Both the position numbers and the translations under genes were made by a program. Source: a virus (lineage: Duplodnaviria > Heunggongvirae > Uroviricota > Caudoviricetes). From it: a stretch of DNA of 10,667 bases. The notes below the pieces were generated by a model. It searched no databases. It saw only the letters and a program-made list of their open reading frames with translations, and had not been told where the DNA came from. The stretch is from positions 1 to 10,667 of the IMG/VR virus record IMGVR_UViG_2778261646_000002. One strand, 5' to 3'. Shown piece by piece: positions 1 through 10,667 of the stretch (the stretch's first letter is position 1; each line of letters begins with the position of its first letter).

Positions 1-1
1 T

Positions 2-112
2 CTGAGACAACATCTGGCAAGGCTGGGACGGAAGTCACTGTCGTTCTCAAAATCGGTGGAGCTGCATGACAAGGTCATCGGGCATTATCTGAACATAAAA
101 CACTATCAGTAA
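2..112 (+). CDS. 3' end of an upstream ORF that runs off the window start (partial); identity not determined
   Basis: Frame 2 is open from position 2 to a TAA at 110-112 (translation ...[36 protein letters not shown]). No start is visible in the window. It could be the real end of the neighbouring gene or an out-of-frame remnant of the ybhJ 5' region. Confidence 0.3.
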
Positions 113-180
113 GTTGGAGTCATTACCCCTCTCACGATATTACCTTTGTTGGTATTGTACAGACCGCTAAAGCGTCCGGT

Positions 181-2205
181 ATGGAACGTTTCCCGCTGCC
201 GTATGTGCTGACCAACTGCCATAACTCACTCTGCGCCGTCGGCGGCACCATTAACGGTGATGACCATGTTTTTGGTTTATCGGCGGCCCAGCGTTATGGC
301 GGTATTTTTGTGCCACCGCATATTACGGTCATCCATCAATATATGCGTGAAATGATGGCAGGCGGCGGCAAAATGATCCTCGGGTCAGACAGCCATACCC
401 GTTACGGTGCGTTAGGGACAATGGCGGTTGGCGAGGGCGGCGGCGAGCTGGTAAAACAACTGCTTAATGACACCTGGGATATCGACTATCCGGGCGTGGT
501 TGCGGTGCATCTGACCGGAAAACCAGCTCTGTATGTGGGGCCACAGGATGTGGCGCTGGCTATCATCGGTGCCGTGTTCAAAAACGGTTACGTCAAAAAC
601 AAAGTGATGGAGTTCGTAGGTCCCGGTGTTGCAGCGCTCTCTACCGATTTCCGTAACAGCGTTGACGTGATGACCACTGAAACGACCTGTTTAAGTTCTG
701 TCTGGCAAACCGATGAAGAAGTCCATAACTGGCTGGCGCTGCACGGTCGCGGCCAGGATTACTGCCAACTTAACCCTCAACCAATGGCGTACTACGATGG
801 CTGCATCAGCGTTGATTTAAGCGCCATCAAACCAATGATTGCGCTGCCATTCCACCCGAGCAACGTGTATGAAATCGACACGCTGAACCAGAACCTGACC
901 GACATTCTGCGTGAGATTGAAATTGAGTCCGAACGTGTGGCGCACGGTAAAGCCAGACTCTCGCTGCTGGATAAAGTGGAAAATGGTCGCCTGAAAGTGC
1001 AGCAGGGGATTATCGCGGGCTGTTCTGGCGGTAACTATGAAAACGTCATCGCGGCGGCGAATGCGCTGCGCGGTCAATCCTGTGGCAATGACACCTTCTC
1101 GTTAGCGGTTTACCCGTCATCACAGCCCGTGTTTATGGATCTCGCCAAAAAAGGTGTGGTAGCAGATTTGATTGGCGCAGGCGCAATCATCAGAACCGCG
1201 TTCTGCGGCCCATGCTTTGGCGCGGGCGATACACCAATCAATAACGGTTTGAGTATTCGCCACACCACGCGTAACTTCCCGAACCGCGAAGGCTCTAAGC
1301 CAGCTAATGGTCAGATGTCAGCGGTGGCGTTGATGGACGCTCGTTCTATCGCTGCGACTGCGGCAAACGGTGGCTATTTAACCTCTGCCAGCGAACTCGA
1401 TTGCTGGGACAACGTGCCGGAGTACGCCTTCGATGTAACGCCGTATAAAAACCGTGTTTATCAGGGCTTTGTGAAAGGGGCGACCCAGCAACCGCTGATT
1501 TACGGACCGAACATTAAAGACTGGCCGGAATTGGGTGCGCTGACTGACAATATCGTCCTCAAAGTGTGCTCAAAGATCCTCGACGAAGTGACCACCACCG
1601 ACGAACTGATTCCTTCCGGTGAAACCTCTTCTTATCGTTCAAATCCGATTGGTCTGGCGGAGTTTACCCTGTCACGCCGCGATCCAGGTTATGTTGGTAG
1701 AAGTAAAGCGACTGCTGAGCTGGAAAATCAGCGTCTGGCGGGAAATGTCAGCGAGCTGACAGAGGTGTTTGCGCGCATTAAGCAGATTGCTGGTCAGGAG
1801 CATATTGATCCGCTGCAAACTGAAATTGGCAGCATGGTCTATGCGGTGAAACCAGGCGATGGTTCTGCGCGTGAGCAGGCGGCGAGCTGTCAGCGTGTGA
1901 TTGGCGGTCTGGCGAATATTGCCGAGGAGTACGCGACTAAACGCTACCGTTCTAACGTCATCAACTGGGGGATGTTACCGCTGCAGATGGCGGAAGCACC
2001 GAACTTTGACGTAGGTGATTACATTTACATCCCTGGCATTAAAGCAGCGCTGGATAATCCGGGTACGACGTTTAAAGGTTATGTGATCCATGAAGATGCG
2101 CCGGTAACAGAGATTACGCTCTATATGGAAAGTCTGACTGCTGAAGAGCGCGAGATTATCAAGGCGGGTAGTTTGATTAACTTCAATAAAAACCGTCAGA
2201 TGTAA
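181..2205 (+). CDS. ybhJ: Aconitase-family hydratase (YbhJ-like), 674 aa as called from ATG 181
   Basis: Long ORF with aconitase-family motifs: [17 protein letters not shown], and Cys-containing segments (IAGCSGG, CGPCFG) typical of the 4Fe-4S ligand region. It sits next to ybhC as in E. coli. The frame stays open upstream to a TGA at 67-69 and no clear Shine-Dalgarno precedes ATG 181, so the true N-terminus is uncertain. Confidence 0.88.
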
Positions 2206-2231
2206 AAAAAGGCGCTATGAAATATAGCGCC
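2204..2231 (-). terminator. Candidate intrinsic terminator for the ybhC transcript (hairpin plus U-tract on the minus strand)
   Basis: Stem GGCGCTAT (2211-2218) pairs with ATAGCGCC (2224-2231) around a 5-nt loop. An A7 run at 2204-2210 gives a U-tract on the minus strand immediately after the hairpin, downstream of the ybhC stop. Confidence 0.4.
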
Positions 2232-2243
2232 CAGTTTCATTAA

Positions 2244-2277
2244 CCCGATGGTTCAGACTATCGGGTTTTCTTTTTTT
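2244..2277 (+). terminator. Candidate rho-independent terminator for ybhJ
   Basis: Stem CCCGAT (2244-2249) pairs with ATCGGG (2260-2265), with further partial pairing inside, followed by TTTTCTTTTTTT (2266-2277). The T-tract overlaps the ybhC stop codon. Confidence 0.6.
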
Positions 2278-3559
2278 ACTTCTTCGCCTCTGCAACCACT
2301 TTGCTACCCACGCCGCGGTTATTGTATTCCCACATGCGGTTGTAGTTAGTGTCATTCAGATTGCGCTGTACTTCGTCGTTATCATCAACGTTGCCAGTAT
2401 TACCCGCAAACGGACGATTGGAAATCACCGCATCGGCCCACGGTTTCGCCGTGTTAAAACCTTCGTTGATGGCGCTATCACGGATCACTACCTGACCGTT
2501 GGTATTGGCATCAACATCCAGCGAGCGGCCCAGTTGCGCCACGCCATCACCGGAAGCATTGAAACGGCTGTTTACGGCGAGGAAACCGTAATAGATGTTA
2601 GACAGCGTAGCCGGTGCAAACACATACGCTTCTTGCTGAGTACGTGAGTTCACCACGCGGAATTCGGTATTATCGAACACCACTGCGCCGCGACCAGAAA
2701 CGATATCCACATCCCCTTCAATATAGCTGTTGGTCACCAGCGTACGCGGCTGACGGTTGGTTTCCAGACGGTTCTGCACACCACTGTTGGTGACAAAGAA
2801 GGTATTCTGACGACCGAGAATGTTGACGTTATTGATCTGCACTTTGTCGCCATCAGTACGCAGTGCCACCGCCGGATGGTTACCCGCATCTACGCTATCA
2901 CCCAGCGTGTTTTCGATGGTCAGGTTTTGCAGTTGCAGGCCATTGTTTTGTGACCAGAAGACCGCAGAGCAGAGAACACCGATACTGTCGCTGCGTTTAC
3001 TCTGGCAGCTATCGTACATATACCACGCCGGTTTACCTGGCATATATTTGCCGCGCGGGTTGACGTCGTGACGCCAGTCGGCAGGGCTCATGCCACCATC
3101 AAGGGAAAGCCCAATCTTCACATCAATCGGTTTTTCACCTGTACCGTACAGAGTAATTCCACCCGGAGCGGCAGGGACATACACCGTTCCCTGATACTCA
3201 CCAGGCATCACGGCAATATACTGGCGCTTGTTGGTACGCTTGATAATTGCCGCATCTACCGCCGCCTGAATCGTGGTATGCGTTACACCTTGAGTACCCG
3301 CCGGGCCGACAACAAAGTCAGGTTGCGCAGGCAAGGTAATTGGGGAAGGATTCCACGCTGCAGCACCTGGCGTCAGGGACGCAAAATAGTGTTGAGCATC
3401 GAAATTCTGCGCTTCTTTTGCCGACAGAATCGGGCGAGAAGAGGTACCAGGCGCGGTTTGATCAGAAGGACGTTGATCGGGCGGTGTTGAGCTACAGGCG
3501 GTCAGCGTCACGCCAAAAGCCAATGCCAGCGCCAGACGGGAAACTGAAAATGTGTTCAC
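2276..3559 (-). CDS. ybhC: Pectinesterase-family outer-membrane lipoprotein / putative acyl-CoA thioesterase YbhC, 427 aa
   Basis: 427-aa ORF with an N-terminal signal peptide and lipobox (LALALAFGVTLTAC). GGAG Shine-Dalgarno upstream of the ATG at 3559. The gene lies directly beside the lambda att core, as expected for ybhC at the att-lambda locus. Confidence 0.9.
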   Translation of the reverse strand: MNTFSVSRLALALAFGVTLTACSSTPPDQRPSDQTAPGTSSRPILSAKEAQNFDAQHYFASLTPGAAAWNPSPITLPAQPDFVVGPAGTQGVTHTTIQAAVDAAIIKRTNKRQYIAVMPGEYQGTVYVPAAPGGITLYGTGEKPIDVKIGLSLDGGMSPADWRHDVNPRGKYMPGKPAWYMYDSCQSKRSDSIGVLCSAVFWSQNNGLQLQNLTIENTLGDSVDAGNHPAVALRTDGDKVQINNVNILGRQNTFFVTNSGVQNRLETNRQPRTLVTNSYIEGDVDIVSGRGAVVFDNTEFRVVNSRTQQEAYVFAPATLSNIYYGFLAVNSRFNASGDGVAQLGRSLDVDANTNGQVVIRDSAINEGFNTAKPWADAVISNRPFAGNTGNVDDNDEVQRNLNDTNYNRMWEYNNRGVGSKVVAEAKK

Positions 3560-3605
3560 AGGTTGCTCCGGGCTATGAAATAGAAAAATGAATCCGTTGA
3601 AGCCT

Positions 3606-3620
3606 GCTTTTTTATACTAA
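3606..3620. other. Phage lambda att core (15-bp common overlap sequence) at the attL prophage-host junction
   Basis: Exact GCTTTTTTATACTAA. The left flank (CCGTTGAAGCCTGC) matches the bacterial B arm and the right flank (GTTGGCATTATAAAAAAGCATTGCTTATCAATTTG...) matches the lambda P' arm, recalled from the lambda attP sequence. Confidence 0.92.
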
Positions 3621-3700
3621 GTTGGCATTATAAAAAAGCATTGCTTATCAATTTGTTGCAACGAACAGGTCACTATCAGTCAAAATAAAATCATTATTTG
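3621..3700. promoter_or_regulatory. Lambda P' arm with IHF H' site and Int arm-type binding sites P'1-P'3
   Basis: IHF-consensus-like TATCAATTTGTTG at about 3645-3657. Three tandem arm-type-like elements follow: AGGTCACTAT, CAGTCAAAAT and AAATCATTAT at about 3667-3697, matching the lambda arm-site consensus (C/A)AGTCACTAT. Confidence 0.8.
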
Positions 3701-4764
3701 ATTTCAATTTTGTCCCACTCCCTGCCTCTGTCATCACGATACTGTGATGCCATGGTGTCCGACTTATGCCCGAGAAGATGTTGAGCAAACTTATCGCTTA
3801 TCTGCTTCTCATAGAGTCTTGCAGACAAACTGCGCAACTCGTGAAAGGTAGGCGGATCCCCTTCGAAGGAAAGACCTGATGCTTTTCGTGCGCGCATAAA
3901 ATACCTTGATACTGTGCCGGATGAAAGCGGTTCACGACGAGTAGATGCAATTATGGTTTCTCCGCCAAGAATCTCTTTGCATTTATCAAGTGTTTCCTTC
4001 ATTGATATCCCGAGAGCATCAACATGCAATGCTGTTGGGATGGCAATTTTTACGCCTGTTTTGCTTTGCTCGACATAAAGATATCCATCTACGATATCAG
4101 ACCACTTCATTTCGCATAAATCACCAACTCGCTGCCCGGTAACAACAGCCAGTTCCATTGCAAGTCTAAGCCAACATGGTGATGATTCTGCTGCTTGATA
4201 AATTTTCAGGTATTCGTCAGCCGTAAGTCTTGATCTCCTTACCTCTGATTTTGCTGCGCGAGTGGCAGCGACCGGGTTTGTTGTTATATGGCCTTCAGCT
4301 ATTGCCTCTCGGAATGCATCGCTCAGTGTTGATCTGATTAACTTGGCTGACGCCGCCTTGCCCTCGTCTATGTATCCATTGAGCATTGCTGCAATTTCTT
4401 TTGTGGTGATGTCTTCAAGTGGAGCATCAGTCAGACCCCTCCTTATTGCTTTAATTTTGCTCATGTAATTTATGAGTGTCTTCTGCTTGATTCCTCTGTT
4501 GGCGAGAATTTTTTCGTAGCGATCAAGCCATGAATGTAACGTAACAGAATTATCACTGTTGATTCTCGCTGTCAGAGGCTTGTGTTTGTGTCCTGAAAAT
4601 AACTCAATGTTGGCCTGTATAGCCTCAGTGATTGCTATCCTCCTGTCTCGGCCTAATCCAAACTCTTTACCCGTCCTTGGGTCCCTGTAGCAGTAATATC
4701 CATTGTTTCTTATATAAAGATTAGGGGGTAAATCCCGGCGCTCATGACTTCGCCTTCTTCCCAT
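3694..4764 (-). CDS. int: Lambda integrase (tyrosine site-specific recombinase), 356 aa
   Basis: Translation matches lambda Int as recalled, from MGRRRSHERRDLPPNLYIRNNGYYCYRDPRTGKEFGLG to RDDRGREWDKIEIK. Tyrosine-recombinase catalytic region present (HELRSLSARLY ... LLGHKSDTMASQY). The stop lies about 74 bp from the att core, as in lambda. Confidence 0.97.
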   Translation of the reverse strand: MGRRRSHERRDLPPNLYIRNNGYYCYRDPRTGKEFGLGRDRRIAITEAIQANIELFSGHKHKPLTARINSDNSVTLHSWLDRYEKILANRGIKQKTLINYMSKIKAIRRGLTDAPLEDITTKEIAAMLNGYIDEGKAASAKLIRSTLSDAFREAIAEGHITTNPVAATRAAKSEVRRSRLTADEYLKIYQAAESSPCWLRLAMELAVVTGQRVGDLCEMKWSDIVDGYLYVEQSKTGVKIAIPTALHVDALGISMKETLDKCKEILGGETIIASTRREPLSSGTVSRYFMRARKASGLSFEGDPPTFHELRSLSARLYEKQISDKFAQHLLGHKSDTMASQYRDDRGREWDKIEIK

Positions 4765-4960
4765 TTCTGATCCTCTTCAAAAGGCTACCTGTTACTGGTC
4801 GATTTAAGTCAACCTTTACCGCTGATTCGTGGAACAGATACTCTCTTCCATCCTTAACCGGAGGAGGGAATATCCTGCATTCGCGCACCCATCGACGAAC
4901 TGTTTCAAGGCTTCTTGGGCGTCGCTGGCGTGCGTTCCACTCCTGAAGTGTCAAGTACAT
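4742..4960 (-). CDS. xis: Lambda excisionase Xis, 72 aa
   Basis: Translation from the internal Met, MYLTLQEWNARQRRPRSLETVRRWVRECRIFPPPVKDGREYLFHESAVKVDLNRPVTGSLLKRIRNGKKAKS, matches lambda Xis. The 3' end overlaps the int start by 23 nt, as in lambda. The longer 102-aa ORF to 5050 is an upstream in-frame extension. Confidence 0.93.
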   Translation of the reverse strand: MYLTLQEWNARQRRPRSLETVRRWVRECRIFPPPVKDGREYLFHESAVKVDLNRPVTGSLLKRIRNGKKAKS

Positions 4961-4986
4961 CGCAAAGTCTCCGCAATTACACGCAA

Positions 4987-5008
4987 GAAAAAGCCGCATT
5001 GATGCGGC
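4987..5008 (-). terminator. Candidate intrinsic terminator on the minus strand just upstream of xis
   Basis: Stem GCCGCA (4993-4998), loop TTGA, stem TGCGGC (5003-5008). An A-run at 4988-4992 on the plus strand gives a U-tract after the hairpin on the minus strand. Confidence 0.4.
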
Positions 5009-5077
5009 GATGGTAGGTCTGGATATCATTGAGCAATGAACAGGCCTCATCGAGTGTGAGGCGGTGTTATTTCATGG

Positions 5078-5338
5078 TTAGTCCTTGCGTAGCTCGCTGA
5101 TTCTTCTGTAAGTCTCTGGTGCTTTGTTTCCGTGTATCTTCATTTCAAACTTCAACAGAGCAACGAGAGAATCCCATTCGTTGAGGATGCCTTTGAATGC
5201 CGGAACGCGCTTTGCAACCTTGTCGAATGAATCTCTGATTTCTGGAATCTGCTCAACAAGTGCAACGCATCGCCGGAAGTCTGCTGCGTCATGTGGAGCG
5301 CCGAAGTGATGACCATAGATATTTTTTTCAGTCCACAT
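5078..5338 (-). CDS. Hypothetical phage protein, 86 aa
   Basis: ORF with protein-like composition (MWTEKNIYGHHFGAPHDAADFRRCVALVEQIPEIRD...). No obvious Shine-Dalgarno before ATG 5338. An overlapping alternative ORF in another frame (start ATG 5421 with a GGAG Shine-Dalgarno, end 5152) competes for this region. Confidence 0.45.
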   Translation of the reverse strand: MWTEKNIYGHHFGAPHDAADFRRCVALVEQIPEIRDSFDKVAKRVPAFKGILNEWDSLVALLKFEMKIHGNKAPETYRRISELRKD

Positions 5339-5447
5339 GCGATTGAGGCAAGAGTTGCGCTACTGATGCCGACATCGCCAGTTGATTGCCATTTCAAAAC
5401 CTTCATAGCCAAATCTGACATTTCTTGTCTCCAATAAAAAACCGCCA

Positions 5448-5615
5448 TCAGGCGTCTTGGTGTTCTTTCAGTTCTTCAATTCGAATATTGGTTACGTCTG
5501 CATGCGCTATCTGCGCCCATATCATCCAGTGGTTATAGCAGTCGTTGATGTCCTCTGCTTCGATAACCCTGTCGAATGGCTCTCCATTCCATTCACCTGT
5601 GACTCGGAAGTGCAT
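5448..5615 (-). CDS. Hypothetical small phage protein, 55 aa
   Basis: ATG at 5615-5613 preceded by GGAG 8 nt upstream. Translation MHFRVTGEWNGEPFDRVIEAEDINDCYNHWMIWAQIAHADVTNIRIEELKEHQDA. Shorter than the 60-aa cutoff of the ORF track. Confidence 0.45.
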   Translation of the reverse strand: MHFRVTGEWNGEPFDRVIEAEDINDCYNHWMIWAQIAHADVTNIRIEELKEHQDA

Positions 5616-5626
5616 TTATCATCTCC

Positions 5627-5653
5627 ATAAAACAAAACTCGCCGTAGCGAGTT
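5627..5653 (-). terminator. Candidate intrinsic terminator on the minus strand between the DUF551 gene and the 55-aa ORF
   Basis: Stem AACTCGC (5636-5642), loop CGTA, stem GCGAGTT (5647-5653). On the minus strand it is followed by TTTTGTTTTAT. Confidence 0.45.
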
Positions 5654-5715
5654 CAGATAAAAGAAATCCCCGCGAGTGCGAGGATTGTTATTCACCTTTG
5701 ACGGCAAGTTGCAGG

Positions 5716-6243
5716 TTAGCCACGGTTAACCTCCTGCGGCGGTTCTGGCAGCGGCATCCAGTGGGTTACGTCATCCAAGATATTTCCTGATAAATATGTG
5801 AAAGCTCTATATTTTTTGTAATCAATTGGACTCATTACCCAGTTCCAATATGCTGCCACTATTTGACCTTGACTAAATGCCAGTAACATTTTGGTGTCGT
5901 CCGGCATTCGCTCACTACAGCTTATCCAACCATCCGGAGTTACCGGCACTGGCTGAGCGGTATAAAGCGGTGTTATATCTGCCCGAAAATTACATGCTTT
6001 ATGCAGCCGCACCCCCCGTTCGACTTCTGCTTTGTCAGGATACATACCAGTGAACGTGTTATATTCACGGTCAATTTGCGTGAAGGTTACCTTCCACGCC
6101 ACCGGCTCTGCCTCAAGCGATGCCAGAGCAATTCGTGCCAGTTCTTCCGCTTCTTCTGCTGGCAGTACAACGTTGCTACCAGGTCTGTATGTTTCGCGCC
6201 ACTGCTTGATTGTCAGCAGTCGCTCTTTGGTAATAGTGGTCAT
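5716..6243 (-). CDS. DUF551-domain prophage protein, 175 aa
   Basis: C-terminal region WISCSERMPDD...VAAYWNW...VTHWMPLPEPP fits the DUF551 pattern common in enterobacterial prophage early regions. The ATG overlaps the upstream stop (ATGA) and has an AAGGA Shine-Dalgarno. Confidence 0.8.
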   Translation of the reverse strand: MTTITKERLLTIKQWRETYRPGSNVVLPAEEAEELARIALASLEAEPVAWKVTFTQIDREYNTFTGMYPDKAEVERGVRLHKACNFRADITPLYTAQPVPVTPDGWISCSERMPDDTKMLLAFSQGQIVAAYWNWVMSPIDYKKYRAFTYLSGNILDDVTHWMPLPEPPQEVNRG

Positions 6244-6755
6244 GCCGCGTTTCCTTCTTTCTTATTAACAATTACACCGTCATATATTTCATTAAGGTGC
6301 CCTCTCAACTCCATGCGCCTTAATGCAGATAACATGTAATCGCATTCAACCTGCTTATTTCCAGTAAATGGCTTATCGTCAGGATTACCCCAACAGCAAT
6401 TACCCTTGGGCCATCCATGTACTTTCCGTACTCTTCCGTTAACAACGTGAAGTAATCCCCAGCCGGGAGGTAAATCCTCAACTGAAATAATTTCCGGCTC
6501 ACTAATAAAGAATCGCCAGTCGCCCATGCCAAGTGAGGGATTTTTACGGAAACGCTTTTTTCTATCTGCCAACAAGTCAGCACGAGAACACTTCGCCTCT
6601 ATCAGGCATGATGCTGAATTTCTGAATCCCATAGCATCTGGCTGTTCTCCGGTACTGGTTACAGCTATAAAGCGGTCATGAAAACAGACCTTGAACCCGT
6701 TGCGCTTAAGGAACTTGTGCGCAATCTGACAGAGTTCGCTGTGTGTTAACGCCAT
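6240..6755 (-). CDS. Hypothetical protein with a PD-(D/E)XK nuclease-like motif, 171 aa from MALTHSELCQ
   Basis: Preferred start is ATG 6755, with AAGGAG 6 nt upstream and 1 nt after the stop of the Ea22-like gene. Contains GEQPD ... LIEAKCS, a PD-x(n)-E-x-K arrangement, and a Cys-containing C-terminal half (GNCCWGNPDD, VECDY). Functional call is motif-based only. Confidence 0.65.
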   Translation of the reverse strand: MALTHSELCQIAHKFLKRNGFKVCFHDRFIAVTSTGEQPDAMGFRNSASCLIEAKCSRADLLADRKKRFRKNPSLGMGDWRFFISEPEIISVEDLPPGWGLLHVVNGRVRKVHGWPKGNCCWGNPDDKPFTGNKQVECDYMLSALRRMELRGHLNEIYDGVIVNKKEGNAA

Positions 6756-6756
6756 A

Positions 6757-7350
6757 TCACTCTCCTTTGATGCGAATGCCAGCGGCACGGGAATCATTCC
6801 ATCGCTTTACTTCTTCACGAATTACGTCAATGCATTCTTTCGAATCCATTAGGTAATCTTCATCAAAAAGACGTTCCTGTTCGTTTTCTATCGCAACAAT
6901 GATTGCTTCAACTAACTTTTGTACCTGAGAACCACTTTCTAACTCTGCTATGCGCTTACTCCCATCCGAGATAACGCCCTCGTAATACTCACGCTGCTCG
7001 TTGAGTTTTGATTTTGCCAACTCCAGTTGTTTTGTTAGTTCCGCAATACGGCAAACATCGTTGATACGCGTTTCCTCTAATGCGTTGATCTCATCCAACA
7101 ATGCCAGCGCAACATTTGGATTAAAAGCAGCAATAAATTCAGCGTTTGCATAAGCCTGAACATCTGTTTCAACCAGGCAGTTAACATGACATTCTGCAAT
7201 CACGCCACCGGGTTCTCCTTTCCATTTTTGGCAAACAAAAACTCCTGTTAAATTGCCGTGCTGGTTAACAGATGTATGCCCTACGATGTAGCTCCCTTTC
7301 GTTGCCTTTTCTGCCGCATCACGCAGTGCCTGATAATTAATTTCGCTCAC
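6757..7350 (-). CDS. Ead/Ea22-like phage protein, 197 aa (GTG start)
   Basis: N-terminus MSEINYQALRDAAEKATKG resembles the Ea22-like family of lambdoid prophages, with a coiled-coil-like central region. GTG start at 7350 with GGAGGA Shine-Dalgarno; GTGA overlap with the upstream stop. Confidence 0.7.
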   Translation of the reverse strand: MSEINYQALRDAAEKATKGSYIVGHTSVNQHGNLTGVFVCQKWKGEPGGVIAECHVNCLVETDVQAYANAEFIAAFNPNVALALLDEINALEETRINDVCRIAELTKQLELAKSKLNEQREYYEGVISDGSKRIAELESGSQVQKLVEAIIVAIENEQERLFDEDYLMDSKECIDVIREEVKRWNDSRAAGIRIKGE

Positions 7351-7571
7351 TCTTCATCCTCCAAGTCGGCAACGGCGTCCATCACATCAGAACCGCGAAT
7401 AACCTCAAAAGCACGGCAGGCCATTTGAAATACCAGTTGCTCTTGCGGGTGAGGAGACTCCCAATATTTGAAGCCTGGGCGATGCGTGTACCCCATCATT
7501 GAATAAAAATCACCAGCAAGCTTAATCGCGGCATCGACAAGCTCTCTGTTAGTCATTCTTTTTCCGCTCAC
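7347..7571 (-). CDS. Hypothetical small phage protein, 74 aa (GTG start)
   Basis: GTG at 7571 with AGGAGG 7 nt upstream, overlapping the upstream stop (GTGA). Acidic C-terminus (ADLEDEE). Confidence 0.6.
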   Translation of the reverse strand: MSGKRMTNRELVDAAIKLAGDFYSMMGYTHRPGFKYWESPHPQEQLVFQMACRAFEVIRGSDVMDAVADLEDEE

Positions 7572-7987
7572 TGGTTGCCTCCTTTGCGAAGCTGGGCGGC
7601 TAACTCATCACATATGTGCGTCAAAGAACAAAGTTTGATTGATGGATGTTCGCGCATCATCTCTACTCCCTGCGCCCGCACTTCAGACAGGAAAGCATCG
7701 GTGGCTGGCATATTTCCTGTTGCCTTCATTGCCTCCAAAATAACCAGAACGCCATCTCGCCCAACCACCTCAGCGATAACCTCGGTGTTGTCGCCAACAA
7801 CATCGCAGAATGCCTGAACTGCCTTACGAGCCAGCGCACTCTCCGCCGCCAGCGCCGCGCACTTGGCCTCCGCTTCAGCAAATTTACGCACCAGATATTC
7901 AGCGTTTGTTTCGTTAACCTTTAAATCGCTTGGGATGCATTTACCTTTCAGGAATCCATCCATCTCAATTAGTGACATTTGTTTCAT
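7568..7987 (-). CDS. Hypothetical phage protein, 139 aa
   Basis: ATG 7987 overlaps the upstream stop (ATGA) with a GGAG Shine-Dalgarno. Ala-rich, predicted helical ([26 protein letters not shown]). No family recognised. Confidence 0.65.
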
Positions 7988-8148
7988 TTCTTCCCACTCC
8001 GCAACATCGCATTCAGATATTTGTTTTGATTCACTGACGGAAAAGAATTTCTCTTTAGCAATTCCTCTCTCGATGGCATTGGCTTTACGCGCTGGCGAAT
8101 AATCATTTCTGCCGGAAGAATGCCGGGGTTGTATGCAAGTCCTCTCAT
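7984..8148 (-). CDS. Hypothetical small phage protein, 54 aa (MRGLAYNPG...); possible longer forms start at 8166 or 8184
   Basis: Within the 101-aa ORF 7984..8289, the ATG at 8148 is the only start with a Shine-Dalgarno (GAGGAA) and lies downstream of the stop of the preceding gene at 8159-8161. Longer forms would overlap that gene. Confidence 0.45.
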
Positions 8149-8158
8149 GGTAAATTCC

Positions 8159-8455
8159 TCAGTCATTACTGATAGCGCCATAGCGTGATCGATAATTACG
8201 CAGCCGCGGGTCGATATATTCAGGGAAGTGGGTATATGTGGCTTTGCGGAATGGTCGGATTGATGTTTCGTTTGTTCGGTCCTTCTCATTTTTTAACGCG
8301 AGTTGTATATCGCGTCGGTACATCCGTTCTGCTTTTGTTTCTGGTGGCAGATCGATAAACGTGTCGAAAATGTTTTTGATATTTTCCAGCACCTCCGCCT
8401 TGGAGCTACCGGAGCAATTGCGCGGGTCATCCGCACCATACAGAGGCGCTGGCAT
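8159..8455 (-). CDS. Hypothetical phage protein, 98 aa
   Basis: ATG 8455 with an AAGG Shine-Dalgarno-like sequence. Charged, protein-like composition. Follows the DUF669-like gene after a 23-bp gap. Confidence 0.5.
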
Positions 8456-8478
8456 AATGGGAGCCTTATTTTCAGTAA

Positions 8479-9066
8479 TCAGAAAGCAGGGTAATCGTTC
8501 TTGCTGTAACCATAATCATCTGCATGATTCTGGCTTACGTTTTTAGAGCGATTGTCTTTATCTTTGAGATTGGCAACCATGTTGGCGATAGTTTCTGGTT
8601 GCTTGCCTTCTGCCTTTTCTTTAAGGGTTTGACCTGTTTGTGCAATAAACGGGATGCGTATTTCCATCTGGTAGTTGTCTGCGCCAGTCTTTTTGTTTGT
8701 GGTTAATACTTTCTGGAGCACTAACCCGATTTTCTTTCCATGAAATTCAGGTGCAACAAATTTACTGGCGGAAACCATATGCTGCGTTAATTGTCCAATC
8801 CCGGCACACCCCATCATGGCGTGAACGACATTTGCGCCAAATTTGTTTTCCGTTCCGTCATTTTTCTGAACACAGACGCTAAGATATTGGATTTTACGTC
8901 CGTCGTCGGATTCTCCAGAAAACTCAATAAATTTGGCTCCTTTTTCTGATTGCTTTAGTTCTGCTTCAGTAATGGTAATGATATGGGCGCCAGTTTCGTT
9001 AATAAAACCACCTTGCCCTGCGGTCAGTGCTGCTTCTTCGTTATAAGTAAAAATCACGTTGCTCAT
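8479..9066 (-). CDS. DUF669-like protein, putative ssDNA-binding partner of Sak4, 195 aa
   Basis: Start ATG 9066 overlaps the Sak4 stop (ATGA) with an AAGGA Shine-Dalgarno. Gene position and size fit the protein that commonly follows Sak4-type ATPases. The C-terminus ...DDYGYSKNDYPAF resembles the aromatic tail of SSB proteins. Family assignment is from memory. Confidence 0.65.
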   Translation of the reverse strand: MSNVIFTYNEEAALTAGQGGFINETGAHIITITEAELKQSEKGAKFIEFSGESDDGRKIQYLSVCVQKNDGTENKFGANVVHAMMGCAGIGQLTQHMVSASKFVAPEFHGKKIGLVLQKVLTTNKKTGADNYQMEIRIPFIAQTGQTLKEKAEGKQPETIANMVANLKDKDNRSKNVSQNHADDYGYSKNDYPAF

Positions 9067-9743
9067 GCGGCGTTTTCCTTAATTTGATGAACATTATTGA
9101 TGCCGTAGTAATCACAAACAGTGGCATCGACGAAAGAGAGATCGTTATCAATCTCATTGGAATCAAACATTCCCATTGGGGATTTGACAGTGTCTGCACC
9201 GTTGTTTTTCGTGGTGAAAAAGAACTGGTCATCGCGGGTAAGAGTGCGAAGAACTATAGTAAACATGCCTTCGACAGTGATTTTCTCGTCCAGCATTTTG
9301 CCGATAGTTTTCATTTTCACGCGCCCCATAGGGGTTTCTTCGGTATGTGCAAGAAAATAGACTCTCAGGTCATCAGGTGCATCCTGTGCAGCCTTAATCA
9401 CCTCCCATGCGTGGCGGCCTATCTCAGTAAATTTATCAAACGATTTTTCTTCTGAGCGGCGCATAAACTCATTGCTCATCACATACTGGAAGTCATCAAC
9501 AATAACGATTCTTTTTCCGTATTCGTGAGCACGCTTAATTACAGCAACTATTACGTCCCATTTGTCAGTGGTAACTACGGTTCCTTTTTTTGCTCTGGCA
9601 TCCCATGCAAGCCAGTCTTTTGATTTAAATGGTAGCGGCTTGCCTATTGGTTTTATAAGTATTGCTTCCTCTGGATTGATATTTCTCATGCTGGTTGATT
9701 TTCCGGTGCCAGATTCACCGAGTATTAATGTCGCAGTTCCCAT
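9063..9743 (-). CDS. Sak4-type RecA-like ATPase / single-strand annealing protein, 226 aa
   Basis: N-terminal Walker A GESGTGKST and Walker B RIVIVDD. Size of about 226 aa is typical of the core-only RecA-like Sak4 proteins of lambdoid and lactococcal phages. GAGG Shine-Dalgarno before ATG 9743. Confidence 0.85.
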   Translation of the reverse strand: MGTATLILGESGTGKSTSMRNINPEEAILIKPIGKPLPFKSKDWLAWDARAKKGTVVTTDKWDVIVAVIKRAHEYGKRIVIVDDFQYVMSNEFMRRSEEKSFDKFTEIGRHAWEVIKAAQDAPDDLRVYFLAHTEETPMGRVKMKTIGKMLDEKITVEGMFTIVLRTLTRDDQFFFTTKNNGADTVKSPMGMFDSNEIDNDLSFVDATVCDYYGINNVHQIKENAA

Positions 9744-9751
9744 AATTTGCC

Positions 9752-9940
9752 TCAGAATGGTAATTCGGATGGGCAGGAAAGAAATTCGCGCTCATTCATG
9801 CGCTCTCTTTGCGCCTGCCATAAACAAAGTTGTTTCTTTGATTTATCTCCCGCTTTACGCCAGTAACGAGCCTCAGCAATGTGATATTCTCTTTTTAATC
9901 GACTTAACTCTGGAGTTTTCGCCAGTTCTACCGGAATCAT
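9752..9940 (-). CDS. Hypothetical small phage protein, 62 aa
   Basis: ATG at 9940 overlaps the kil stop (ATGA) and is preceded by GGAGGT. The upstream in-frame ATG at 9952 lies inside kil and lacks a Shine-Dalgarno. Confidence 0.5.
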   Translation of the reverse strand: MIPVELAKTPELSRLKREYHIAEARYWRKAGDKSKKQLCLWQAQRERMNEREFLSCPSELPF

Positions 9941-10050
9941 TTTGACCTCCATTTTCTGTAGGCTTCTACGGCTTCACGAAACATCTTTTCATCGCCAATA
10001 AAAGTGGCGATAGTGAATTTAGTCTGGATAGCCATAAGTGTTTTATCCAT
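9937..10050 (-). CDS. kil: Kil-like host cell-division inhibitor, 37 aa
   Basis: MDKTLMAIQTKFTIATFIGDEKMFREAVEAYRKW closely matches the N-terminus of lambda Kil as recalled. AGGAG Shine-Dalgarno present. Overlaps the cIII 3' end by 8 nt. Confidence 0.75.
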   Translation of the reverse strand: MDKTLMAIQTKFTIATFIGDEKMFREAVEAYRKWRSK

Positions 10051-10183
10051 TTTTGGGAACTCCTGGCTGATTAAGTATGTCGATAAGGCGTTTCCATCCA
10101 TCACGTAATTTACGTGTGATTCGTTCAAGTAAAGATTCGGAAGGGCAGCCAGCAACAGGCCACCCTGCAATGGCATATTGCAT
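10043..10183 (-). CDS. cIII: CIII-like protein (FtsH inhibitor that stabilises CII), 46 aa
   Basis: MQYAIAGWPVAGCPSESLLERITRKLRDGWKRLIDILNQPGVPKNG matches lambda CIII as recalled, with a shorter C-terminus. AAGGAG Shine-Dalgarno upstream of ATG 10183. The longer 80-aa form in the ORF track is an upstream extension. Confidence 0.85.
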   Translation of the reverse strand: MQYAIAGWPVAGCPSESLLERITRKLRDGWKRLIDILNQPGVPKNG

Positions 10184-10246
10184 GGTGTGCTCCTTATTTA
10201 TACATAACGAAAAACGCCTCGAGTGAAGCGTTATTGGTATGCATAT

Positions 10247-10270
10247 AAAAAGGCCCTCACACTGGAGGGC
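10247..10270 (-). terminator. Candidate intrinsic terminator on the minus strand upstream of cIII
   Basis: Stem GCCCTC (10253-10258), loop ACACTG, stem GAGGGC (10265-10270). An A5 run at 10247-10251 gives a U-tract after the hairpin on the minus strand. Confidence 0.5.
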
Positions 10271-10332
10271 AAAGAAGATTTCCAATAATCAGAACAAGTC
10301 GGCTCCTGTTTAGTTACGAGCGACATTGCTCC

Positions 10333-10360
10333 GTGTATTCACTCGTTGGAATGAATACAC
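10333..10360. repeat. Perfect 9-bp inverted repeat with a 10-nt spacer
   Basis: GTGTATTCA (10333-10341) and TGAATACAC (10352-10360). No flanking T-tract on either strand. Confidence 0.5.
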
Positions 10361-10374
10361 AGTGCTTCTCTGTG

Positions 10375-10493
10375 CTAAATAATTAAATCATATTCTGATT
10401 TGGTTAGTTTATACGCACCTCCTCTGGTGTAATATGCAAATCTGTCTTTGCTTCCATCAGAATTGTATACCCACCCACCAAATGGAAAGATAG
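10375..10493 (-). pseudogene. 3' remnant of a phage gene truncated by the IS insertion
   Basis: Two minus-strand frames are open from the IS junction: one ends at a stop at 10404-10406 (...ILMEAKTDLHITPEEVRIN*), the other at 10375-10377 (...WVYNSDGSKDRFAYYTRGGAYKLTKSEYDLII*). No start codon region is present on the window side of the IS, and the correct frame is unresolved. Confidence 0.3.
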
Positions 10494-10667
10494 TGAACCG
10501 CCCCGGGTTTCCTGGAGAGTGTTTTATCTGTGAACTCAGGCTGCCAGATCATCGTTTCCGATGGAAGCATAATAAGCTTTTTCTGCTTCTGCCGGAGGAG
10601 TATGGCCCAGCCTTTCCAGCAATCGTCGATTGTTATACCAGTCCACCCACGTGAGTGTGGCCAGTTC
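10494..10667 (-). mobile_element. IS629-like (IS3-family) insertion sequence, right end (partial; continues beyond the window)
   Basis: Plus strand from 10494 reads TGAACCGCCCCGGGTTTCCTGGAGAGTGTTTTATCTGTGAACTCA, the reverse complement of the IS629 right terminus as recalled, with the TG...CA ends typical of IS3-family inverted repeats. Followed by the transposase 3' end. Confidence 0.85.
10536..10667 (-). CDS. IS3-family transposase (OrfB), C-terminal 43 codons (partial)
   Basis: Minus-strand translation ...ELATLTWVDWYNNRRLLERLGHTPPAEAEKAYYASIGNDDLAA* carries the conserved W-x-x-WYN-x-x-R-x-x-x-x-LG C-terminal signature of IS3-family transposases. Stop codon at 10536-10538. Confidence 0.85.
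   Translation of the reverse strand, partial: ELATLTWVDWYNNRRLLERLGHTPPAEAEKAYYASIGNDDLAA

Follow-up and report, generated by a model that had tools for sequence, protein, structure and literature searches.

A putative MmcB-like PD-(D/E)XK nuclease encoded in the early-left region of a lambda-like Escherichia coli prophage

Introduction

For the MmcB-like proteins (DUF1052/COG5321), a relationship to archaeal Holliday-junction resolvases has been predicted (PMC1189080), and the PD-(D/E)XK classification contains them together with the structure 3dnx (PMC3424549). MmcB of Caulobacter has been described as an SOS-induced PD-(D/E)XK endonuclease that is required for mitomycin C resistance, and a function in crosslink repair has been hypothesised (PMC9578287). 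Phage genes of the MmcB-like type have been counted among replication and repair genes, though no experiments accompanied these listings (PMC10054541, PMC9123017). The present study deals with a gene on the virus record IMGVR_UViG_2778261646_000002 (Caudoviricetes), of which positions 1 to 10,667 were analysed; this whole stretch of 10,667 nucleotides is called the window. The gene lies on the minus strand at positions 6240-6755. A first-pass annotation made from the sequence alone had described its product as a small protein with a PD-(D/E)XK nuclease-like motif and a cysteine-rich C-terminal half, coupled to a downstream DUF551 gene. According to sequence comparisons and structural modelling, the product is very probably a DNA-cutting enzyme of the restriction-endonuclease-like fold. 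By sequence, its family is an extensive sister branch of the MmcB-like proteins that has no name and is carried mostly by phages; the MmcB-like family in turn is related to archaeal Hjc.

Results

Active-site motif and conservation

The open reading frame (ORF) comprises 171 codons and a stop codon and encodes a single-domain protein of 19 kDa with an isoelectric point (pI) of 9.0. The motifs on which the nuclease assignment had been based, GEQPD and LIEAKCS, correspond to residues 36-40 and 51-57, and the spacing between D40 and E53 is 13 residues. Taken alone, this motif does not go beyond chance, because shuffled sequences of the same composition often carry it: D-x(10-20)-[DE]-x-K was found in approximately 50% of them, and the version including the proline (PD-...-[DE]-x-K) in 3.8%. 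It is the conservation of the motif, together with the fold, that makes it real. Conservation was counted in an alignment of 88 diverse homologues reaching down to about 32-45% identity with the window protein. D40 was present in all of these sequences, E53 and K55 in 87 each and E37 in 86, while position 27 was acidic in 86. D60, G78 and R81 are invariant as well. D64, K67 and R70 were each retained in 87 homologues and belong, along with E37, E53, K55, H5, P39, S57, R58, W99, G100, E137, R146 and R147, to the residues conserved in at least 90% of the sequences. The conserved C-terminal residues are E137, R146 and R147; W122 occurs in 50 of the 88 proteins.

The residues around the active site can be summarised in an extended family motif, E-x-K-x-S-R-x-D-F-x-x-D-x-x-K-x-x-R, at the start of which the family consensus reads LIECKxSRxDFLAD. 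Its first part, IE-x-K-x-SR-x-DF-x-x-D, follows the third core strand both in SPO1766, the protein of structure 3dnx (VIECKSSRADFQAD), and in the window protein (LIEAKCSRADLLAD).

The near-invariance of the catalytic set down to the most distant members of the alignment is expected of an active enzyme. It has to be weighed against the idea that the nuclease fold is a mere scaffold and that the protein is a non-catalytic regulator, which binds DNA or a host protein and affects the lysis-lysogeny decision or host physiology. The basic pI would suit such a regulator, and so would the location of the gene (see below), since the exo-xis genes orf60a, orf61, orf63 and ea22 modulate lysogenisation and induction (PMC10834534, PMC3824215). 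However, homologues also occur in strictly lytic phages, which do not take a lysogeny decision. A purely regulatory protein is accordingly very unlikely.

The family is large. A word-indexed search of a clustered database yielded 313 homologue clusters, and an exhaustive profile search gave 3,283 representatives at 50% identity (E<=0.001). The window protein itself had no match in Pfam, NCBIfam or PADLOC at E<=1, nor was any found by phmmer among the PDB sequences. PHROGs returned families of 'unknown function' and a weak match to a 'DNA repair protein' family (E 0.005). Some of the 88 homologues matched Pfam models weakly, and all of these models represent PD-(D/E)XK families: Hjc (35 members), MmcB-like (16, best E 2.9e-4), AHJR-like (3), UPF0102 (2) and VRR_NUC (1).

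Several homologues are longer than the window protein or carry unexpected labels. In P0221 and P0137, the nuclease domain is fused to a dATP/dGTP pyrophosphohydrolase (PF04447, E 5.4e-20) or a TniB-like ATPase (E 3.2e-6). These fusions could be real or could be read-throughs of gene calling. Another long homologue with an Ea22 N-terminus probably is such a read-through. As a clue to function the fusion partners (TniB-like ATPase, pyrophosphohydrolase, a DUF551-like segment below threshold, Ea22) were dismissed, being too heterogeneous. The Vibrio phages vB_ValS_VA-RY-4 (OK483199) and vB_VhaS-VHB1 (MT451873) possess nearly full-length homologues (30-35% identity) annotated as 'adenylosuccinate synthase', which looks like a misannotation.

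Predicted fold and structural relatives

A first AlphaFold2 model, calculated with 31 close homologues, had a predicted local distance difference test (pLDDT) score of 58 and was not used. The alignment of 88 sequences was used instead, and the resulting model reached a pLDDT of 95.0 and a predicted template modelling (pTM) score of 0.88. Its elements are a helix (residues 5-18), three strands (23-26, 41-45 and 48-54), a helix (58-64), a strand (80-85), a hairpin (100-113) and C-terminal helices. The predicted core thus has the canonical alpha-beta-beta-beta-alpha-beta order of the restriction-endonuclease-like fold. In this model, D40 heads the second strand and E53 is located on the third one, directly followed beyond its end by K55. 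Together with the conservation of the motif, the predicted fold bears out the PD-(D/E)XK nuclease assignment of the first-pass annotation, and the protein agrees with the superfamily in fold, placement of the motif and conservation.

Searching the PDB with Foldseek, the model had one strong match, the structure 3dnx of SPO1766 (E 1.9e-6, probability 1.00). Matches among the viral models of BFVD included phage proteins annotated as 'MmcB family DNA repair protein' (E 5e-8 to 1.4e-6). The family profile recovered 3dnx from the PDB by hmmsearch (E 3.3e-5), and hhalign of the profile with a segment of SPO1766 gave a probability of 97.7% (E 1.6e-12, 35% identity over 83 columns). With Sulfolobus Hjc the profile reached E values of 0.07-0.3, and D40, E53 and K55 were aligned to D42, E55 and K57 of Hjc 1hh1. 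Since 3dnx aligns over nearly the whole of its own length, the C-terminal half of the window protein belongs to the same domain and is not a separate module.

Cysteine residues

The C-terminal half had been called cysteine-rich on account of the segments GNCCWGNPDD (residues 118-127) and VECDY (136-140). This description is inaccurate. Four of the seven cysteines (9, 24, 50 and 56) belong to the N-terminal half and three (120, 121 and 138) to the C-terminal half, and none of them is conserved across the family: C9 was found in 25 of the 88 homologues, C50 in 16, C138 in 11, C121 in eight, C56 and C120 in five each and C24 in two. Other homologues mostly have V, I, T, A or N at these positions.

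The number of cysteines raises the possibility of a metal-cluster nuclease similar to Cas4 or AddB, in which C9, C50, C56, C120, C121 and C138 bind zinc or an iron-sulphur (Fe-S) cluster. Seven cysteines in 171 residues are compatible with this idea, and C9, C50 and C138 are kept among the close enterobacterial homologues. In the diverse alignment, however, a set of four conserved cysteines as in the cluster of Cas4/AddB-type enzymes is absent, and neither by name nor by alignment is the closest structure, 3dnx, a cluster protein. A zinc or Fe-S site is therefore excluded as a feature of the family, and the metal-cluster reading is effectively refuted.

Start codon and genomic context

Table 1. 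Position of the putative nuclease gene and of associated features in the window.
Feature	Position	Strand	Basis
Gene of the MmcB-like PD-(D/E)XK nuclease homologue, 171 amino acids, stop included	6240..6755	-	Translation, homologues, AlphaFold2 model, similarity to 3dnx
Codons G36-K55 with the predicted active site E37, D40 (GEQPD) and E53-x-K55 (LIEAK)	6591..6650	-	Conservation, model
Shine-Dalgarno-like AAGGAG, 6 nucleotides upstream of the ATG, inside the last codons of the Ea22-like gene	6762..6767	-	Sequence reading
DUF551-domain gene, 175 amino acids, downstream	5716..6243	-	Pfam DUF551, E 3.2e-22
Ead/Ea22-like gene, 197 amino acids, upstream; stop 1 nucleotide before the nuclease ATG	6757..7350	-	Pfam Ead_Ea22, E 7.4e-28
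Two terminator-like hairpins with T-rich tails, directly 3' of the DUF551 gene	5635..5686	-	Consensus scan; not evidence of function

The ATG at position 6755 is the likely start codon of the nuclease gene, because it is preceded by AAGGAG (6767-6762) and because the homologues begin at the same methionine. For these reasons a longer ORF of 185 amino acids starting at 6797 was rejected. ORFs on the plus strand (6001-6339, 6032-6268 and 6526-6681) were regarded as shadows of conserved genes on the minus strand.

The window matches the genome of E. coli O7:K1 strain CE10 (NC_017646, 820956-831623) with 100% identity, the only difference being a T in a homopolymer at position 5329. Behind ybhJ and ybhC come the genes of a tyrosine integrase (3694-4764) and an excisionase. 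Beyond the excisionase gene, early genes are encoded on the minus strand as far as kil and cIII, and a lambda cIII thermoregulator element was detected at 10138-10196 on the minus strand (Rfam Lambda_thermo, 88.5 bits, E 5e-21), which confirms a cIII leader of the lambda type. The order of genes is thus that of a lambda-like prophage, with the nuclease gene in its early-left region of the exo-xis type.

At the left edge of the window, the end of an IS1 transposase gene (1-112) truncates ybhJ, and at the right edge, just past cIII, the transposase gene of an IS3-family insertion sequence starts (10537-10667). Insertion sequences thus lie on either side of the early-left arm, where they may interrupt the prophage. 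The homopolymer (within 5078-5448) consists of seven T residues in the window and of eight in the CE10 RefSeq record. With the shorter form, two ORFs that overlap each other take the place of a gene of 114 amino acids annotated in CE10 (locus at 5078-5422). The discrepancy arose either in sequencing or assembly or through a true homopolymer frameshift. The Ea22-like gene is an intact ORF in the window and is recorded by RefSeq as partial ('missing C-terminus'); it probably is a mosaic C-terminal variant, as described for phages encoding Shiga toxin (Stx) (PMC10834534).

Relationship to the DUF551 gene

The TGA of the nuclease gene (6242-6240) overlaps with the ATG of the DUF551 gene (6243-6241) in the sequence ATGA. 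This overlap, from which a coupling of the two genes and possibly a two-component function had been deduced, is real. Co-transcription in the prophage is still plausible, because the operon is compact and the terminator-like hairpins follow only after the DUF551 gene. Unless it is antiterminated, a transcript of the ea22, nuclease and DUF551 genes would end or be attenuated at these hairpins. The ATGA overlap is not specific to this pair, as overlaps of 4 bp exist at five junctions of the operon.

What the comparison of lineages does not support is a conserved partnership, with the nuclease and the DUF551 protein made by coupled translation and working as a complex. For this comparison, the genes downstream of the homologue were analysed at 85 loci (the window, four annotated phage regions and 80 viral contigs). 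A DUF551 domain was encoded within 4 kb of the homologue at 27 loci, but directly downstream at only seven; the directly downstream ORFs fall into 45 clusters. The ATGA overlap also exists in phage TL-2011b, a DUF551-domain gene lay under the match in seven of the 25 copies listed for evenly spaced complete E. coli genomes, and the homologue P0223 possesses a DUF551-like C-terminus below threshold (E 8.4e-4, 20.6 bits versus a cut-off of 22). By contrast, the downstream genes of Klebsiella phage VLCpiS13b and Vibrio phage MAR10 had no DUF551 match, and that of Kuttervirus BSP101 is annotated as a DNA primase gene. DUF551 has moreover been characterised as a portable domain which is fused to many unrelated proteins (PMC10834534). 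A two-component nuclease is thus a highly improbable explanation, slightly more so than the non-catalytic regulator, and the DUF551 gene is a probably co-transcribed neighbour but not a conserved partner.

Gene neighbourhoods of the homologues

Neighbours were counted at 117 loci, which form 49 groups when the target protein is clustered at 90% identity and are biased towards Gammaproteobacteria. Recurrent neighbours were genes of Ea22-like coiled-coil proteins (19 groups), NinG (13), replication O/P-like proteins (11), xis and int (10), DnaB (7), an HD-type phosphohydrolase (7) and NinB (6). In lytic phages, homologues are encoded beside primase or helicase genes, and in temperate phages they are found among replication, NinB/NinG or xis-int genes. 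The homologue of MAR10 directly follows primase/helicase and SNF2 helicase genes, while that of BSP101 directly precedes the DNA primase gene. The protein of BSP101, a Salmonella phage (locus L005, 2480-3097), and those of other Ackermannviridae, of approximately 205 amino acids, share only residues 4-113, i.e. the catalytic core, with the window protein; their C-terminal parts are unrelated. Among the genomic homologues, the most divergent are encoded in the vicinity of NinG in Solimonas, of a DNA methylase and a PDDEXK_1 nuclease in Rhodobiaceae, and of an NA37 nucleoid-associated protein in Flavobacterium.

Distribution and inactivated copies

The gene is present in 17% of the complete E. 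coli genomes as well as in many Stx-converting phages, in Ackermannviridae and in Vibrio phages. In addition, 296 plasmid records of Escherichia, Salmonella, Klebsiella and Shigella (about 50-125 kb) carry it at 95-99% identity, e.g. NZ_CP148447.1 (locus L120) and NZ_CP117657.1. On one such plasmid the gene adjoins Ea22-like, eaa and DUF551 genes. Possibly, the plasmids are phage-plasmids.

Not all copies are intact. In E. coli O157:H7 strain SS17 (NZ_CP008805; locus L119, 701-1214), a 2-bp deletion (AG, nucleotides 156-157 of the coding sequence, equivalent to window positions 6600-6599) within codons I52 and E53 destroys the E-x-K motif and leaves an annotated fragment of 58 amino acids (WP_001356547.1). 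The resulting 514-bp form accounted for five of the 24 full-length matches when E. coli genomes were sampled at even spacing. Three of the five are named O157, and it was the SS17 copy whose sequence was checked.

The inactivation of the SS17 copy, which hits precisely the E-x-K codons, agrees with an activity that is costly or toxic. It is conceivable that the protein is an accessory PD-(D/E)XK enzyme of the 'moron' type, which is directed against DNA other than that of the phage, be it for degradation of host DNA, exclusion of superinfecting phages or plasmids or anti-defence, and which leaves replication intermediates of the phage itself unprocessed. Its patchy presence on chromosomes and plasmids, its location in the mosaic accessory exo-xis and nin regions with their diversity of downstream genes, and the many restriction or CRISPR-ancillary nucleases among its fold neighbours are in line with such a conflict nuclease. 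On the other hand, no defence model of PADLOC was matched, and at the 117 loci no immunity, methylase or sensor gene was consistently adjacent. Homologues of lytic phages are embedded between helicase and primase genes, and it is to the MmcB-like repair family and to Hjc, rather than to restriction enzymes, that the protein is most closely related. Altogether, a conflict nuclease is unlikely, even though it is the most serious competitor of a role in phage DNA metabolism.

Among the public records listed, every full-length copy is called hypothetical. RefSeq splits the intact CE10 gene (locus L001, 6241-6573 and 6578-6756) into a 'hypothetical protein' of 110 amino acids and a 'frameshifted' pseudogene, though nothing interrupts the ORF in CE10; a further full-length copy, which a plasmid carries (locus L120, 3338-3516), is likewise flagged as frameshifted. 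Fragments from truly frameshifted copies, e.g. those of O157:H7, may have served as reference proteins. No paper mentioning the accessions of the nuclease protein was found, and a modelling study on the exo-xis region (PMC8614690) contained none of the nuclease-related terms searched for.

Discussion

Based on sequence conservation and on the model, it can be stated with high confidence that the window protein has the PD-(D/E)XK fold, belongs to the MmcB-like lineage and has kept its active site. What it does in the phage can be narrowed down less well. The best overall explanation, to which we give slightly better than even weight, is an MmcB-like PD-(D/E)XK nuclease with an accessory function in phage replication, recombination or repair. 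The gene would be transcribed with the early-left (pL, exo-xis) operon upon induction or infection. D40 and E53 of its product would bind a divalent metal, possibly together with E37 and D27, and K55 would complete the site for a metal-dependent cleavage of DNA. As the nearest relatives are Hjc and the MmcB-like proteins and not sequence-specific restriction enzymes, this cleavage would most probably be selective for structure rather than sequence, and branched, stalled-fork or damaged intermediates might be its substrates. Structure-selective processing of DNA for replication, recombination or repair of the phage is itself a tentative assignment, held at somewhat less than even confidence. 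The function would be non-essential and would not need DUF551. The genes for primases, helicases and other replication or recombination proteins beside which homologues occur are consistent with this proposal.

Several observations weigh against it. The window protein matches neither PF06319 nor PF01870, even at E<=1. The acidic residue to be expected in the first helix by analogy with Hjc apparently is not conserved (E7 in 43 of the 88 homologues, compared to 85 for H5); E37 and the acidic position 27 are conserved instead. The gene is often accompanied by that of NinG/Rap, which is known to be a junction nuclease, and this speaks against a role simply as a resolvase. Furthermore, the gene sits in mosaic accessory regions that also house conflict genes, and it is a pseudogene in SS17 and therefore dispensable there. 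Finally, neither biochemical evidence on the family of the window protein nor a report of a direct nuclease assay with MmcB was found.

A more special possibility is that the phage brings along a lesion- or crosslink-processing nuclease for genomes in which damage has triggered induction, since mitomycin C and other SOS inducers would also damage the prophage template. With this protein the phage would have its own version of the Caulobacter MmcB pathway, working at stalled forks beside the phage helicase and primase. Alternatively, it might be an unrecognised conflict nuclease, the toxicity of which would explain the inactivation in O157:H7. Taken together, these variants are rather improbable.

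[quoted passage not shown] The region is thereby linked to MmcB-like repair nucleases, for which no biochemistry was found reported. The analysis also exposes an annotation problem: the fragment left by an O157:H7 pseudogene has a gene annotation of its own, and intact copies bear a frameshift label. No new kind of system emerges, and a specialist would not be surprised. The finding can help annotators and those who study the exo-xis region.

Among known systems, the MmcB-like family (PF06319) with SPO1766 of Ruegeria (Silicibacter) pomeroyi and Caulobacter MmcB is closest. The similarity rests on significant profile homology, on the extended motif G..D(x12-13)IE-x-K-x-SR-x-DF-x-x-D-x-K shared with SPO1766, and on a similar size of about 150-170 amino acids in a single domain. 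The Pfam model of this family does not, however, detect the window protein. Compared to SPO1766, its family has an additional K67-x-x-R70...G76-x-G78 element (KKxFRxxPxxGMG), opposite a gap of seven residues in SPO1766 in the hmmsearch alignment, and the conserved residues W99-G100, E137 and R146-R147. Its genes reside on phages, prophages and plasmids of Gammaproteobacteria, whereas DUF1052 genes have been described as chromosomal and mostly alphaproteobacterial (PMC3424549). Unlike the mmcB gene, for which SOS regulation has been described (PMC9578287), the window gene belongs to a phage early operon.

With archaeal Hjc (PF01870; 1hh1, 4tkd, 2eo0) the window protein has in common the minimal alpha-beta-beta-beta-alpha-beta core of PD-(D/E)XK enzymes and the aligned D, E and K residues. 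It differs from Hjc by additional C-terminal helices and apparently by the lack, in its family, of a conserved counterpart to the helix-1 active-site glutamate E12. Neither the gathering threshold of PF01870 nor a significant match to a solved Hjc structure was reached. NinG/Rap and RusA resemble the window protein in being small accessory nucleases of temperate phages, encoded in early or nin regions near NinB and replication genes. Their folds, however, are unrelated to that of the window protein; Rap is HNH-like and RusA has a fold of its own. The co-occurrence with NinG suggests that the MmcB-like nuclease acts on a different, non-redundant substrate.

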